From NCBI RefSeq assembly GCF_013315695.1, contig NZ_CP054353.1: a DNA stretch of 64,000 bases; one strand, 5' to 3'. How positions within the stretch are numbered: position 1 is the stretch's first letter; every line of letters begins with the position of its first letter. The translations under genes and the position numbers were made by a program. The notes below the pieces were generated by a model, which was not told the DNA's origin, ran no database searches, and worked only from the letters and a program-made list of their open reading frames with translations. This document shows positions 2,693 through 63,447 of this stretch, one piece after another. This DNA is from Escherichia coli (lineage in GTDB: Bacteria > Pseudomonadota > Gammaproteobacteria > Enterobacterales > Enterobacteriaceae).

Positions 2693-3176
2693 GGAGATAC
2701 TCCGCAGTTATGGCTGATACCGGACAACTGGCTGCACATGCTCCACATCCGTTGCAAAGTTGGCTATTAAGTTGCGGCTGGTAGATCCCGGAGAGCGTCG
2801 GGCGAAAGATAATTGCCATTGGCTCACAGCTATCCTGACAGCGGCGGCATTCAACTGTTTGATACGCCAGGCACACCTCCCCGATGGTGAACAGCAAATC
2901 CCAGGCCCTGGTGTGGCGCGGAGAAAATAGCGATTCGGGGCAAGCCTGCGCGCAGGCGTAACAGAAGCTGCACTCGTTATTTTTGAAATTAACGCTCGGA
3001 TAGCCGCCAGCGCCGCGTTGCAGGATGTTGTTTTCACAAGCATTAATACAGGCGTCGCAGCGGGTGCAATGGGTCAGAAAATGAGATTCATCACCGGACC
3101 AGGGCGGACGGATACCGTTACTGGCTTTGCGCCAGCGACCAGTGAGTATGCCCCGACGGGATGCATCAATCTTCAC
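2682..3176 (-). CDS. napF: ferredoxin-type protein NapF (multiple 4Fe-4S CxxCxxCxxxCP motifs)
   Basis: 164-aa ORF with repeated Cys clusters; first gene of nap operon. Confidence 0.9.
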   Translation of the reverse strand: MKIDASRRGILTGRWRKASNGIRPPWSGDESHFLTHCTRCDACINACENNILQRGAGGYPSVNFKNNECSFCYACAQACPESLFSPRHTRAWDLLFTIGEVCLAYQTVECRRCQDSCEPMAIIFRPTLSGIYQPQLNSQLCNGCGACAASCPVSAITAEYLHAH

Positions 3177-3289
3177 ATTGACCTTCCATCATTAACGCGC
3201 TCTGAAAATTGAGAGCGACCAAATAAACCGCATAATTAATAAGCCATTTTTATAGCCGCTAAGATATTAAAGGATGTGTCAAAGATGCA

Positions 3290-3305
3290 TACCCCGATCG
3301 GGGTA
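3290..3305. promoter_or_regulatory. perfect 16-bp palindrome TACCCCGATCGGGGTA, 7-2-7 heptamer pair typical of NarP/NarL sites, upstream of napF
   Basis: Palindrome read directly; position about 115 bp upstream of napF start fits the known NarP-activated napF promoter; a partial FNR-like half site (ATCAA) lies about 20 bp further upstream. Confidence 0.6.
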
Positions 3306-3583
3306 AAACCTGTAGCAGGATCAAAAGAGTGGCGGGAAGCGTGGCAAAAACGGGCTTTTGCTCACATTTCAAATGGTTATAAACATATTTATATAGCGAT
3401 TAATTCGCCAGAGATATTTCTGCTGGTTTGTTTTCTCATCAGAATTTAACACTAAAAGAGCAGGTAAAATTATCTGAATGTTCTTTAAGTTATTCATAAA
3501 GCAAATTAATAAATCTGATGAATATGTTAACCTTCAGCGACATCATCGGTGAAAACCTATAAATGAAGAAGGAAAGCAAAAAA

Positions 3584-4072
3584 ATGAAGACCATTCTACC
3601 TGCAGTATTGTTTGCCGCTTTCGCCACCACTTCCGCCTGGGCGGCAGAAAGCGTCCAGCCGCTGGAAAAAATCGCACCTTATCCACAAGCTGAAAAAGGC
3701 ATGAAGCGTCAGGTGATTCAGTTAACTCCGCAAGAAGATGAATCTACCCTGAAAGTAGAACTGTTAATCGGTCAGACGCTGGAAGTCGATTGCAATTTGC
3801 ATCGTCTCGGCGGGAAGCTGGAAAGCAAAACGCTGGAAGGCTGGGGCTATGATTATTATGTCTTTGATAAAGTTAGCTCGCCGGTTTCCACGATGATGGC
3901 CTGCCCGGATGGCAAGAAAGAGAAGAAATTTGTCACCGCGTATCTGGGCGATGCCGGAATGCTGCGTTATAACAGCAAGCTGCCGATCGTGGTGTATACG
4001 CCAGACAATGTGGATGTGAAGTACCGCATCTGGAAGGCGGAAGAGAAAATTGACAACGCGGTTGTTCGCTAA
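3584..4072 (+). CDS. eco: ecotin, periplasmic serine protease inhibitor
   Basis: ORF 3563..4072; start placed at internal ATG 3584 ([10 protein letters not shown]... signal peptide) to give the 162-aa ecotin I recall. Confidence 0.9.
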
Positions 4073-4089
4073 ACTACTGTGAAGTGCTG

Positions 4090-4216
4090 CAACCCGTAGG
4101 CCGAATAAGGCGGTTACGCTGCATCCGACATCTAACGCCCGAGCCGGTTGCCTGATGCGACGCTGACGCGTCTTATCAGCATACGCCACATCCGGCAAAC
4201 CATGCCGGATGTGGCA
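4090..4216. repeat. REP/BIME cluster (GCCGGATG / CTTATC-type palindromic units) between convergent eco and mqo
   Basis: Three imperfect palindromic units resembling the REP consensus read in sequence. Confidence 0.7.
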
Positions 4217-4221
4217 CATCA

Positions 4222-5880
<1,659 letters not shown>

Positions 5881-19564: not shown

Positions 19565-19579
19565 GGTAATGACTCCAAC

Positions 19580-20083
19580 TTATTGATAGTGTTTTATGTT
19601 CAGATAATGCCCGATGACTTTGTCATGCAGCTCCACCGATTTTGAGAACGACAGCGACTTCCGTCCCAGCCGTGCCAGGTGCTGCCTCAGATTCAGGTTA
19701 TGCCGCTCAATTCGCTGCGTATATCGCTTGCTGATTACGTGCAGCTTTCCCTTCAGGCGGGATTCATACAGCGGCCAGCCATCCGTCATCCATATCACCA
19801 CGTCAAAGGGTGACAGCAGGCTCATAAGACGCCCCAGCGTCGCCATAGTGCGTTCACCGAATACGTGCGCAACAACCGTCTTCCGGAGCCTGTCATACGC
19901 GTAAAACAGCCAGCGCTGGCGCGATTTAGCCCCGACATAGCCCCACTGTTCGTCCATTTCCGCGCAGACGATGACGTCACTGCCCGGCTGTATGCGCGAG
20001 GTTACCGACTGCGGCCTGAGTTTTTTAAGTGACGTAAAATCGTGTTGAGGCCAACGCCCATAATGCGGGCTGTTGCCCGGCAT
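19580..20083 (-). CDS. insB: IS1 transposase InsB reading frame (expressed as InsAB' fusion by -1 frameshift)
   Basis: 167-aa ORF matching IS1 InsB. Confidence 0.9.
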
Positions 20084-20277
20084 CCAACGCCATTCATGGC
20101 CATATCAATGATTTTCTGGTGCGTACCGGGTTGAGAAGCGGTGTAAGTGAACTGCAGTTGCCATGTTTTACGGCAGTGAGAGCAGAGATAGCGCTGATGT
20201 CCGGCGGTGCTTTTGCCGTTACGCACCACCCCGTCAGTAGCTGAACAGGAGGGACAGCTGATAGAAACAGAAGCCAC
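20002..20277 (-). CDS. insA: IS1 InsA (transposition inhibitor / N-terminal part of transposase)
   Basis: 91-aa ORF with zinc-finger Cys motif (CPSCSA...CSHC) matching IS1 InsA. Confidence 0.9.
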
Positions 20278-20332
20278 TGGAGCACCTCAAAAACACCATC
20301 ATACACTAAATCAGTAAGTTGGCAGCATCACC

Positions 20333-39547: not shown

Positions 39548-40750
39548 TTATTTGATCACATAGGCAAGATATTGTTGTACGATTTCATCGTTTAATTCCT
39601 GACCAAGCCCAGGCAACTCTGGCGCGACATAATAGCCATTCTCGGGTTGATAATCGTAAGTACAAAGTTCCCGAATACATGCTTTCATCGCATTGGTATG
39701 ATGTTCATGAATAATAAAGTTAGGTATTGCAGTTTCCATATGCAGCGCCGCTACTGTTGAAACAGGCCCGCCACAAACATGTACCTGAACGGTTGTGTCA
39801 TATATATTGGCATAATCACAAATTTTCTTTCCCTCTGTAATGCCACCACAAAGACACAAATCAGGTTGAGCTACCGCAATTGATTGTTTTTCCAGTAAAT
39901 CACGATATCCCCAGCGAGTATAAGAACGCTCACCTGTTGCTATCGGAATCGATGTTGAACGGGCAACTTTCTGCATATTATCCGAATTTAATGGATGAAT
40001 TGGCTCCTCATAGAGAAAAATACGATATTTCTCTATTGCTTTGGCAAACTGGATCGCTGAATTTGTTCCTAGAAGAGAATGAATCTCTACAATAATATCA
40101 GCATCGTCGCCCATTGCTTCACGCATAGCGGCAATTCTTGCCTCGCCCATTTTTAATTGTTCGGCCAGTAATAAGCCAGAGTAATTTCTATTTTTGTTCT
40201 GAAAGACACAATCGCCGCCATGCAGATCGATTTCAAGCGGATCAACTTTTATCGCATTATAACCTTCTGCAATAGCGGCACGCGCTGCCTCTGCATACTC
40301 TTCAGGCGTTACTAATATTTGCCTTTTTTCGCCCCAACCAAATTGTAACTGACTGGCGTAAGTTCTCAATTTATCGTTAGTCTTTCCCCCCAGTAGTTGA
40401 TAAACCGGCACGTTTAAATATTTACCTTTAATATCCCATAAGGCAATATCAATAGCGCTCATACCTGCGTAAAAAACATTACCACCGCCCATTCCCCAAA
40501 ATGTTTTCCTGAAGAGGAATTCCCAAATCTTCTCAATGTTCAACGGATCTTCACCAATGATGAGAGGGGCTAAATCTCTGATAATACCAACACCAGATTT
40601 TGCACCTGCACCATAGGCTAATCCTACTTCGCCAACACCACTTATTCCAGCATCGGTATTAACCCGAATAAGTACTGGATTATAAGAGGCCATAGTTTGA
40701 TCTCTTTTTTTGAGTTCGCAGTCAAAAATTTCTACAGATGTAATCTTCAT
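39548..40750 (-). CDS. enolase-superfamily sugar-acid dehydratase (mandelate racemase/muconate lactonizing enzyme fold; DgoD/ManD-like)
   Basis: ORF 39548..40762; start placed at ATG 40750 (MKITSVEIF...) which has a GAGG Shine-Dalgarno 7 nt upstream; N-terminal capping domain and metal-binding barrel motifs typical of the family. Confidence 0.8.
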   Translation of the reverse strand: MKITSVEIFDCELKKRDQTMASYNPVLIRVNTDAGISGVGEVGLAYGAGAKSGVGIIRDLAPLIIGEDPLNIEKIWEFLFRKTFWGMGGGNVFYAGMSAIDIALWDIKGKYLNVPVYQLLGGKTNDKLRTYASQLQFGWGEKRQILVTPEEYAEAARAAIAEGYNAIKVDPLEIDLHGGDCVFQNKNRNYSGLLLAEQLKMGEARIAAMREAMGDDADIIVEIHSLLGTNSAIQFAKAIEKYRIFLYEEPIHPLNSDNMQKVARSTSIPIATGERSYTRWGYRDLLEKQSIAVAQPDLCLCGGITEGKKICDYANIYDTTVQVHVCGGPVSTVAALHMETAIPNFIIHEHHTNAMKACIRELCTYDYQPENGYYVAPELPGLGQELNDEIVQQYLAYVIK

Positions 40751-40762
40751 AAATAACCTCAT

Positions 40763-41998
40763 TTATTTAGCATGTGAAATAACATTGTCTTTCTGGGCGT
40801 TATCTTTTTTATTATCAATTTTCATTGATAACAAAATAGCTACGGCGATAAAGCAAAGAATCGCCTCAACAATAAATATCCCCGTGGCTCCATAATGTGT
40901 AGAAACATAGCCAAGTGATTTATTGATCAGAAAACCACCCAAACTTGAACAAGAGTTAATAAACGCAATACTGATTGCCAGGCCTGATGGTGAAAGTAAA
41001 GCTGAGGGTAAAGCCCAGTACGGACCGTAATAACTGAGAATGCCTACACCGTATAATGTTAATCCCATCATGCGCAGCGTCATCGAAGGTACAAGTGCGA
41101 TCATTAAAAAACCGCAACCTGCAACCAACATCGGTAGTGCGGCATGCCATTTCCTTTCATTCTTTTTATCGGAATGCCATCCCCATAATGGCATACTGAA
41201 CATCGCGAAAATAAACGGAATACTCATAATCAAACCGACATCGGTATCTGTGAAATCCGATGAAAATCCTTTAACCAACCCCGGTAACCAGTAATTTGCC
41301 GCCAACGCCGCTGCCTGAATAAACATATAAGCAAATGAGAGTTGTAGTAATACTGGATTTTTAATGATTGACAGAAAAGATGCATTTGTATTTTTATTTA
41401 ATGCTGCGGCTTTTTCGTTATCAGAATTAAGTTTATCGACCAATGCGGTGACTTGCGATGGTGTAAGCCAGCGGGCTTTTTCCGGACGATCTGGCAGTAA
41501 ATAAAAGGTCAGCGCCCCCAATAACACCGTAGGAATGCCTTCAATAGCAAAAAGCCAGCGCCATCCTTCATAGTTACCGGTATTCATATGTTCAATAATC
41601 CAACCAGACATTGGTGCCGCCAGCACAGATGCAACTGCGATTGATAACATAAAAAAGCTATTCACTTTTCCACGTTCGCGCGCCGGGAACCAACATGCCA
41701 GGTAGTAAACCATGCCAGGGAAAAACCCCGCTTCAAATATTCCCAAAAAGACCCGAGCGAGCAATATATGCTGGGTGTCTTTGGCAAAGAAAATTAACGT
41801 TGTTACTGTTCCCCAACCAACAATAATGGCGCTAATCCATTTTCTTGCACCTAACTTTTGCAATCCAATACTGCTCGGAGTTTGAAAAATTAAATAGGAC
41901 ACAAAAAATATTGAAGATATATTAGCAAAATCCTCTGGAGTAATACCAAGGGATTCATTCATGCGTAAAGCGGCAAACCCAATATTAACACGATCCAT
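40763..41998 (-). CDS. MFS transporter, anion:cation symporter-like (sugar-acid uptake); 5' end apparently frameshifted, see findings
   Basis: 411-aa ORF with MFS signature (DRVNIGFAA...) ; the expected first about 31 codons are in a different frame (ATG at 42090). Confidence 0.75.
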   Translation of the reverse strand: MDRVNIGFAALRMNESLGITPEDFANISSIFFVSYLIFQTPSSIGLQKLGARKWISAIIVGWGTVTTLIFFAKDTQHILLARVFLGIFEAGFFPGMVYYLACWFPARERGKVNSFFMLSIAVASVLAAPMSGWIIEHMNTGNYEGWRWLFAIEGIPTVLLGALTFYLLPDRPEKARWLTPSQVTALVDKLNSDNEKAAALNKNTNASFLSIIKNPVLLQLSFAYMFIQAAALAANYWLPGLVKGFSSDFTDTDVGLIMSIPFIFAMFSMPLWGWHSDKKNERKWHAALPMLVAGCGFLMIALVPSMTLRMMGLTLYGVGILSYYGPYWALPSALLSPSGLAISIAFINSCSSLGGFLINKSLGYVSTHYGATGIFIVEAILCFIAVAILLSMKIDNKKDNAQKDNVISHAK

Positions 41999-42180
41999 AT
42001 AGTTAAAAAATACAGAATAAATGCTAACGGAATAATCTTCCTTTTCACAATAGAAATGGCATCATACAAATCTTTCTGAGGACTGCTCATTTTGTTTCAC
42101 CTTTTGTGCTTCAATGAATAAGAGTACTACCCGAAGTGGATATTACGTAAAAAATAATCCAGTTCAAAAGGTGATGTGTT

Positions 42181-42196
42181 ATATCTGATATATCAG
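42181..42196. promoter_or_regulatory. palindromic operator-like site ATATCTGATATATCAG (copy 1) in divergent MFS/GntR promoter region
   Basis: CTGATATATCAG is a perfect palindrome; near-identical copy 70 bp downstream. Confidence 0.5.
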
Positions 42197-42250
42197 CCTG
42201 ATCATTGATTGAAACACTAACCTACAACAATAAGATACATTATTTTTGTC

Positions 42251-42266
42251 ATATCTGATATATTAG
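42251..42266. promoter_or_regulatory. operator-like site ATATCTGATATATTAG (copy 2)
   Basis: 15/16 identical to copy 1; 62 bp upstream of the GntR gene start. Confidence 0.5.
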
Positions 42267-42327
42267 ACACCTTCATTTATAAAATGATTACATATAATGG
42301 GTCAGCAGCTTAATAAGGGGCAAAGGA

Positions 42328-43026
42328 ATGAGAGATAAAGCGAAACGTGACTTAAGTCACATATCAATTGAGATACCAAAATCCGTAACCCAGGTCATCA
42401 AAGAAAAAATCAGGGATATGATAATTCATGGCGATCTCAGTCTTGGGCAACCGATAAGTGAAAATGAACTTTCGAATATTCTGGCGGTAAGTAAAACACC
42501 TATTCGTGAAGCTTTTATTTTACTTAGTCACAATGAAAATCTGATCAATATCATTCCACGCAGCGGAACATTCGTTTTTTCCGTAACAGATAAAGATATT
42601 AATGACCTCATAAAAATGCGAGTAATTCTGGAGCAGGGTGCAATTAGTGAAACAATGGAAAAGAATGCAAACAATGTCATCATTGAACTAAATAGTATAC
42701 TATCAAAATCAGCAAAAATTAATGCCGAGCGCGATACTCAGGCTTATCTTAAACTGGATCATGATTTTCATTATGTGTTTGTTAAATACGCTGATAATAA
42801 ATACATCTCTCAGGCACACCAATTGATATCCGCACGTTTACTTGCTATCCGTTATCGACTGGATTTCACTACGGAATATATCACCAATTCAAATCGTGGC
42901 CATGCGACTATTTTAGATATGCTAAAAAATAATAACGTTGAAGGTGTTTGTAATTTTATTACTCATCACGTAAGTAGTGGATTTACCGAGCGCGCACGAA
43001 AAATTCTCTCGTTATCTACACAGTAA
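42328..43026 (+). CDS. GntR-family transcriptional regulator (N-terminal wHTH, C-terminal FCD-like domain)
   Basis: 232-aa ORF with GntR HTH signature (ISENELSNILAVSKTPIREAF); strongly A/T-ending codon usage. Confidence 0.8.
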   Translation: MRDKAKRDLSHISIEIPKSVTQVIKEKIRDMIIHGDLSLGQPISENELSNILAVSKTPIREAFILLSHNENLINIIPRSGTFVFSVTDKDINDLIKMRVILEQGAISETMEKNANNVIIELNSILSKSAKINAERDTQAYLKLDHDFHYVFVKYADNKYISQAHQLISARLLAIRYRLDFTTEYITNSNRGHATILDMLKNNNVEGVCNFITHHVSSGFTERARKILSLSTQ

Positions 43027-62249: not shown

Positions 62250-63209
62250 ATGACCGAATCAACAACCTCCTCCCCGCATGATGCGGTGTTTAAAACCTTT
62301 ATGTTCACACCCGAAACCGCACGGGATTTTCTGGAAATACATCTACCAGAGCCGCTGCGCAAGCTTTGCAACCTGCAAACTTTACGCCTGGAACCCACCA
62401 GCTTTATTGAAAAAAGTTTACGCGCTTACTACTCGGATGTTTTGTGGTCGGTGGAAACCAGCGACGGTGAAGGCTATATCTACTGCGTGATTGAACATCA
62501 AAGTTCCGCGGAAAAGAATATGGCCTTTCGGCTAATGCGCTATGCCACTGCCGCCATGCAACGTCATCTGGACAAAGGCTATGACAGAGTCCCGCTGGTG
62601 GTACCATTGCTGTTTTATCATGGCGAAACCTCGCCCTACCCGTACTCACTCAACTGGCTGGATGAGTTTGACGATCCGCAACTTGCCCGGCAGTTGTACA
62701 CCGAAGCTTTTCCGTTGGTGGATATCACCATCGTACCTGACGATGAGATCATGCAACATCGGCGTATAGCTCTGCTGGAACTGATTCAAAAGCATATTCG
62801 CGACCGCGATTTAATCGGTATGGTCGACAGGATCACCACGCTTTTGGTTAGAGGCTTCACTAATGACAGCCAGCTACAAACGCTGTTTAATTATCTGCTG
62901 CAATGCGGCGATACCTCCCGTTTCACCCGTTTTATTCAGGAGATTGCCGAACGTTCACCACTACAAAAGGAGAGATTAATGACTATTGCTGAACGGCTGA
63001 GGCAGGAAGGGCATCAAATTGGCTGGCAGGAGGGTAAGATTGAAGGTTGGCAGGAGGGGAAATTGGAGGGTTTGCAGAAAGGCAAAGTAGAAGGTATGCA
63101 TGAACAAGCCATTAAAATTGCCTTGCGCATGCTGGAACAGGGCTTTGAACGTGAGATTGTGCTGGCGACAACCCAACTCACTGATGCTGATATTCCGAAC
63201 TGTTATTAA
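62250..63209 (+). CDS. yfaD: Rpn-family (YhgA-like, transposase_31 / PD-(D/E)XK) recombination-promoting nuclease homolog
   Basis: 319-aa ORF; N-terminal nuclease-like domain and C-terminal repeat module ([25 protein letters not shown]); I recall yfaD being renamed rpnE. Confidence 0.8.
62979..63209 (+). CDS. candidate in-frame internal small protein (RpnS-like C-terminal domain of YfaD) with its own ribosome-binding site
   Basis: Strong SD AAGGAGAG 7 nt upstream of in-frame ATG 62979 ([19 protein letters not shown]...); the same SD and start sequence is duplicated at ypaA. Confidence 0.45.
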
Positions 63210-63221
63210 AAGGAGAGATTA

Positions 63222-63407
63222 ATGACTATTGCTGAACGGCTACGGCAGGAAGGACATCAAATTGGCTGGCAGGAGGGTAAATTAGAAGGCATGCATGAAC
63301 AAGCCATTAAAATTGCCTTGTGCATGCTGGAACAGGGCATTGAGCGTGACCAGGTGCTCGCGGCCACTCAGCTAAGCGAAGCCGATCTGGCAGCGAATAA
63401 CCACTAA
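63222..63407 (+). CDS. ypaA: YpaA, free-standing paralog of the Rpn C-terminal domain
   Basis: 61-aa ORF; first 33 nt including the SD are identical to the internal start region of yfaD. Confidence 0.7.
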   Translation: MTIAERLRQEGHQIGWQEGKLEGMHEQAIKIALCMLEQGIERDQVLAATQLSEADLAANNH

Positions 63408-63447
63408 TTAACACAGGCCCACAGCCGATCCCCATGGGCCTTTGATA

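Follow-up and report, generated by a model that had tools for sequence, protein, structure and literature searches.

A frameshift fixed in one Escherichia coli clone very probably inactivates the DgoT-like MFS transporter gene of a ubiG-gyrA islet

The nearest solved relative of the transporter described here is DgoT of Escherichia coli, a D-galactonate:H+ symporter of the MFS anion:cation symporter (SLC17-like) type (PDB 6E9N/6E9O). The first transmembrane helix (TM1) of DgoT begins at R28/R29; Y44 and R47 contact the substrate, and the D46N substitution abolishes transport (PMC6532931). The intact form of our transporter has the same 12-TM MFS_1 fold and shares with DgoT the TM1 motif Y-x-D-R-x-N, formed by Y31, D33, R34 and N36 here and by Y44, D46, R47 and N49 in DgoT. 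Moreover, a link to an acid-sugar dehydratase gene is common to both transporters. The partner of the islet transporter, however, is an enolase-superfamily enzyme other than DgoD, and the kinship to DgoT is distant.

In the clone examined here, the gene has a run of six T residues (T6) where intact orthologues have seven (T7). Like ordinary homopolymer-indel pseudogenes, the locus has lost one base of a short mononucleotide run in an ORF that is otherwise intact, the orthologues of sister lineages are intact, and the lesion is inherited clonally; nothing substantive differs, the run having been hit twice, or once with one assembly error in addition. With the contingency loci of Neisseria, Haemophilus and Campylobacter, which rely on poly-G or poly-C tracts, it shares a mononucleotide run near the 5' end that sets the reading frame. 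Unlike those loci, it has a tract of only 6-7 nt in a metabolic gene, with no intraclonal length polymorphism and with T7 stable in 134/140 genomes. Finally, with the programmed -1 frameshift sites (HIV-1 gag-pol, U_UUU_UUA; E. coli dnaX, A_AAA_AAG; the transposase genes of IS1, IS3 and IS911) it shares a heptamer in the correct phase, identical to that of HIV-1 gag-pol. In contrast to those sites, the heptamer has no hairpin, pseudoknot or upstream Shine-Dalgarno (SD) sequence, is not conserved and is a side-effect of the deletion.

The DNA analysed (hereafter the window) is a stretch of 64,000 nt from contig NZ_CP054353.1 of the E. coli assembly GCF_013315695.1. Reading of both strands with the list of ORFs shows that a minus-strand ATG at 42090-42088 opens an ORF of 43 codons, and that the main MFS ORF lies in another frame (Table 1). 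The upstream ATG is preceded by a good SD sequence, AAGGTG at 42103-42098, with a spacer of 7 nt. Translation from it gives MSSPQKDLYDAISIVKRKIIPLAFILYF, which corresponds to the N-terminus and the first half of TM1; the out-of-frame codons follow, up to a TGA at 41961-41959. The remaining frame of 411 codons is open, carries no further lesions and ends with a TAA at 40763; no SD sequence precedes its ATG at 41998 in the upstream sequence ctgtattttttaactatATG, which was read directly. Addition of one T to the T6 run produces ...ILYFFNYMDRVN... and an uninterrupted protein of 442 aa, which adds 31 residues to the ORF as called. Intact alleles of the gene are accordingly 1329 nt long and encode 442 aa, with Phe28-Phe29 specified by the T7 run.

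Table 1. Features of the transporter gene and its neighbours in the window
Feature	Position	Strand	Remarks
Frameshifted MFS (anion:cation symporter/DgoT-like) transporter pseudogene, whole	40763..42090	-	1328 nt; same span in PGAP; Pfam MFS_1
5' fragment ORF, 43 codons	41959..42090	-	28 native codons, 15 out-of-frame codons, then TGA
3' remainder ORF, 411 aa	40763..41998	-	From an internal Met (M32 of the intact protein)
T6 homopolymer, coding strand (A6 on the + strand)	42005..42010	-	Site of the 1-nt deletion relative to T7 of intact orthologues
T_TTT_TTA heptamer made by the deletion	42004..42010	-	X_XXY_YYZ phase with the upstream frame
Intact mandelate racemase/muconate lactonizing (MR/MLE; enolase superfamily) acid-sugar dehydratase-like gene	39548..40750	-	Downstream operon partner
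GntR-family regulator gene	42328..43026	+	Divergent from the MFS gene; from ORF list and profiles
Two 20-nt boxes TGTYATATCTGATATATYAG	42177-42196 and 42247-42266	.	Divergent promoter region, 70 nt apart

These data agree with an earlier sequence-only reading of the locus, in which the MFS ORF as called was taken to start at ATG 41998, the ATG at 42090 was proposed as the genuine N-terminus, the two frames were predicted to join if the run of six were seven, and the product from 41998 was estimated to lack about 31 N-terminal residues. The upstream frame and the MFS frame are not chance neighbours, because orthologues with T7 are annotated from the same upstream ATG and because the family profiles span the upstream residues. 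In the restored protein, a typical 12-TM member of the MFS_1 type, Pfam MFS_1 (PF07690) matches residues 24-388 (E=4e-52); the profile for TIGR00893 starts at residue 25, the one for HpaX at residue 15, and similarity to DgoT starts at residue 21. The best NCBIfam matches are TIGR00893, the D-galactonate transporter subfamily, and HpaX, the TIGR00893 score of 268.4 bits lying below the curated cutoff of 395. DgoT itself aligns over residues 21-420 with E=1e-19. Judged by these matches, the protein is a transporter homologous to DgoT and not a DgoT orthologue, and it is assigned neither to the TIGR00893 subfamily nor to a substrate.

The alignment with DgoT also places the lesion. Residues Y31-M32-D33-R34-V35-N36 (YMDRVN) align with Y44-V45-D46-R47-A48-N49 of DgoT (YVDRAN), in TM1. 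Thus, the conserved Asp-Arg pair and Tyr of this helix, which serve in proton coupling and carboxylate binding, are present in the restored protein. The frameshift, at codon 29, cuts TM1 midway, just ahead of the conserved Tyr-x-Asp-Arg; of this helix, the product of 43 residues retains no more than the cytoplasmic half.

Alleles were counted by exact matching of short queries, with the run at their centre, in the 140 complete E. coli genomes that have the locus. T7 was found in 134/140 genomes and T6 in 6/140. An exact match to the T7 82-mer of the SMS-3-5 type accounts for 111 genomes and one to the T7 82-mer of the TCM3e1/IAI39 type for 13; a further 10 genomes carry SNP variants, all of which span 82 nt for the 81-nt query, and T7 is inferred for them from this span. 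The T6 81-mer of the window is matched exactly by 5 genomes, and T6 occurs on the SMS-3-5-type haplotype in 1 genome, AR_0077. The intact orthologues that were inspected directly have T7 where the window has T6, and in TCM3e1, SMS-3-5, 2013C-3264 and OkiPb01694 the MFS gene is an intact CDS of 1329 nt read from the same upstream ATG. A span of 1633 nt in OkiPb01694, considered as a possible further lesion of the MFS gene, was discarded, as the CDS is intact and the extra base lies outside it. The comparison of homopolymer length with orthologous islands, which had been suggested as a check, thus supports a 1-nt change in the run, and the idea that orthologues might all start at the downstream ATG does not hold, since the intact ones use the upstream ATG. 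By its frequency and distribution, T7 is the ancestral and majority state.

The five genomes with the window-type T6 allele are MSB1_4I, AF3/OZ547117, OZ546925, OZ546911 and MS 21-1. When 24 kb of the window is used for comparison, these same five genomes match best, with 99.9-100% identity, the next match being at 98.7%. The window is not itself one of these five assemblies: the closest, MSB1_4I, shows 3 SNPs against it over 43.7 kb and differs further by an IS1 insertion of 768 bp. The T6 clone therefore comprises the window and five independent assemblies, T6 in 6/6, whereas T7 is found in 134/135 genomes elsewhere. The allele is common to the window and to all five of its nearest complete genomes and, apart from one other lineage, is confined to them; on this distribution, T6 is a real, heritable deletion of 1 nt that defines the clade to which the window belongs. 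The lesion is already known, in that it is on record in the RefSeq annotation of the same clone: PGAP labels the gene 'MFS transporter, frameshifted' in AF3 and MSB1_4I, as well as in AR_0077.

The exception outside the clone is AR_0077 (NZ_CP026755.1), in which the same T7-to-T6 deletion is found on another haplotype (locus at 2959-4286 of the compared sequence). AR_0077 differs from the window at a SNP 52 nt upstream of the run and at three SNPs 21-27 nt downstream of it, and otherwise differs from SMS-3-5 by 2 SNPs across the gene. The flanking SNPs and the SMS-3-5-like haplotype rule out the import of this allele from the clone of the window by recombination. Two origins are left for T6 in AR_0077, a second deletion that occurred independently and an error in this one assembly; that is, the run is somewhat mutable or the assembly is wrong at this position.

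Taken together, the data make it very probable that the MFS gene is a frameshift pseudogene fixed in one lineage of E. coli. Replication slippage in the common ancestor of the clone would have removed one T from the T7 run. Translation from ATG 42090 would then leave the frame in the middle of TM1 and stop after 43 codons, so that no SD-driven product would have an intact TM1 and the transporter would be inactivated. The loss of transport is inferred from the truncation of TM1 and from the position of the residues essential in DgoT. Rho-dependent polarity on the downstream dehydratase gene is possible. The TGA of the 43-codon ORF, however, shares bases, as ATGA, with the in-frame codon for M44 of the intact protein, at 41962-41959 on the minus strand, a classical arrangement for termination-reinitiation. 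Reinitiation at this site may soften polarity by keeping ribosomes on the mRNA, and would yield a protein devoid of TM1 and presumably inactive. A trace of full-length product could also arise if ribosomes slip by -1 on the U_UUU_UUA heptamer that the deletion created. E. coli is known to suppress frameshifts at a low level, with aggregate values of 1-10% in test cases (PMC10861913), and for this reason the T6 allele may not be a complete null. Since the 411-codon frame has accumulated no further lesions, the event could be recent; alternatively, reversion of 1 nt could still restore the gene.

The locus should be annotated as a frameshifted pseudogene at 40763-42090, in place of an MFS protein of 411 aa with its start at 41998. 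The clone would probably be unable to import the acid sugar handled by the islet, and the T6 allele provides a handy clone-specific marker. Beyond the correct annotation, the importance of the lesion is very small; the substrate of the islet is the more interesting question.

A broader interpretation, which we consider improbable, is that the T7 run is a recurrent hotspot at which an accessory transporter is silenced across lineages, perhaps reversibly and maybe under selection, with leaky slippage. Two T7-to-T6 events among 140 carriers would fit such a hotspot; the support consists of one extra singleton genome, AR_0077. Loss might be favoured by the combination of a regulator that is altered at its N-terminus in all strains with a costly operon or a harmful import, while leaky -1 slippage on U_UUU_UUA might maintain a trickle of full-length protein.

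It is very unlikely that slipped-strand mispairing in the T6/T7 tract acts as a high-frequency on/off switch of the transporter. The tract does lie at the 5' end of the ORF, where a change of length flips the frame, and two independent T7-to-T6 events appear among the 140 genomes. In recognised contingency loci, however, tracts are usually of 8-9 nt or more; here the run is of 6 nt in the window, against 7 nt in the intact alleles. Moreover, no length variant occurs among the six T6 members of the clone and a single deviation is seen among the 135 genomes of other lineages; this constancy of the tract argues against rapid switching. The gene, in addition, codes for a metabolic transporter and not for a surface antigen or a restriction-modification system.

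Equally improbable, in our estimate, is recoding, by which -1 ribosomal frameshifting or slippage during transcription would let the T6 allele yield a working transporter of full length. A -1 slip at the heptamer, which is in the correct X_XXY_YYZ phase, would give ...ILYFLNYMDRVN..., that is, a full-length product with the substitution F29L. Against this, a run of 6 nt is too short for efficient slippage by RNA polymerase, and elements that could stimulate ribosomal frameshifting are missing. No downstream stimulatory structure was found, the 83 nt from the run folding with -14.2 kcal/mol (z = 0.20; 112/200 shuffles fold as well), and the 20 nt upstream of the heptamer contain no GGAGG-like sequence. 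Even in the absence of stimulators, heptamer motifs cause frameshifting in E. coli at rates above background, but only at 2-10 times a background of about 0.055%, and U_UU.U_UU.A is absent from the 18 motifs that combine a negative z-score (under-representation) with unstimulated shifting of >0.10% (PMC4066793). Efficiency at this heptamer is thus expected to be near background in E. coli. Single-base deletions can be suppressed to a noticeable extent (PMC10861913); slips elsewhere in the stretch of roughly 34 codons, however, would scramble TM1. Given the missing stimulators, the low unstimulated rates and this scrambling, we expect that the correct full-length product of the T6 allele would amount to well under 1%. 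Nor is the two-frame arrangement conserved: 134/140 orthologues have a single frame, and the heptamer is a by-product of the deletion.

That the true sequence is T7 and one base was lost through a homopolymer miscall is still less probable. Indels in homopolymers are a typical error of long-read assemblies, and the singleton T6 of AR_0077, on a haplotype that is otherwise held by 111 T7 genomes, could be of this kind. For the clone itself, the occurrence of T6 in six independent assemblies, the window and five others, disposes of sequencing error, all the more so as 134 assemblies of other lineages have T7. Random miscalls would not track the phylogeny; with about one stray T6 in 135 other assemblies, six of six would arise by chance with a probability of about 1e-13. 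Of the three explanations put forward in the sequence-only reading, pseudogenization by slippage therefore stands, while switching falls for want of intraclonal variation and sequencing error because T6 follows the clone.

Least credible of all is initiation at ATG 41998, with the 411-aa protein working as a transporter with a shortened N-terminus: its frame is open and undamaged, but its ATG has no SD sequence, a product starting at M32 would begin inside TM1, with 11.5 of the 12 helices left, and would lose the half of TM1 on the cytoplasmic side together with Y31, the equivalent of the substrate contact Y44 of DgoT, and the intact orthologues are all annotated from the upstream ATG.

The pseudogene is part of an islet of three genes, for a GntR regulator, the MFS transporter and an enolase-superfamily dehydratase, inserted between ubiG and gyrA; the genes around it are ubiG, yfaL, gyrA and nrdAB, which mark the DNA as that of E. 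coli. The islet is carried by 140 of 5,426 complete E. coli genomes (2.6%), as a single copy and on the chromosome every time. The dehydratase-like gene starts 12 nt past the stop codon of the MFS gene, and its product, WP_001571680.1, has the same sequence in T6 and T7 strains. In profile searches, this MR/MLE enzyme falls under the curated cutoffs of every named family of acid-sugar dehydratases; its best match is galactonate dehydratase, with 249 bits against a cutoff of 311.

The regulator gene is also labelled as frameshifted. PGAP extends it to an ATG at 42284, in another frame (42284-43026, 743 nt), and the label applies to the extreme 5' end of the gene in 7/7 genomes viewed, also where the transporter gene is intact. 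An SD sequence of its own, AAGGGG, serves the 232-aa ORF that begins at ATG 42328, and GntR profiles match this ORF from residue 11; by comparison with these profiles it looks complete. The label may be an annotation artefact, or the N-terminus may have shifted long ago and acquired a new start codon. Each of the TGTYATATCTGATATATYAG boxes in the divergent promoter region holds a CTGATATATCAG-type palindrome, and the boxes are plausible candidates for GntR operators. In the same region, a perfect inverted repeat of 10 nt (42097-42106/42165-42174) takes in the SD sequence of the transporter gene.

Elsewhere in the window, the 768-bp IS1 lies in atoS, at 19565-20332, with a 9-bp duplication at its junctions; its ORFs, InsA (20277..20002) and InsB (20083..19580), are both on the minus strand. 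This copy is found in the genome of the window only. As it is missing from the nearest relative, MSB1_4I, the insertion is, by this comparison, very recent, and it disrupts the AtoS sensor kinase in this isolate. The annotation of the nearest relative also lists an ISNCY-family transposase and a partial hypothetical gene between glpC and yfaU (rhmA); read from that annotation, this region (45151-46308 of the relative) corresponds to about 62250-63410 of the window.
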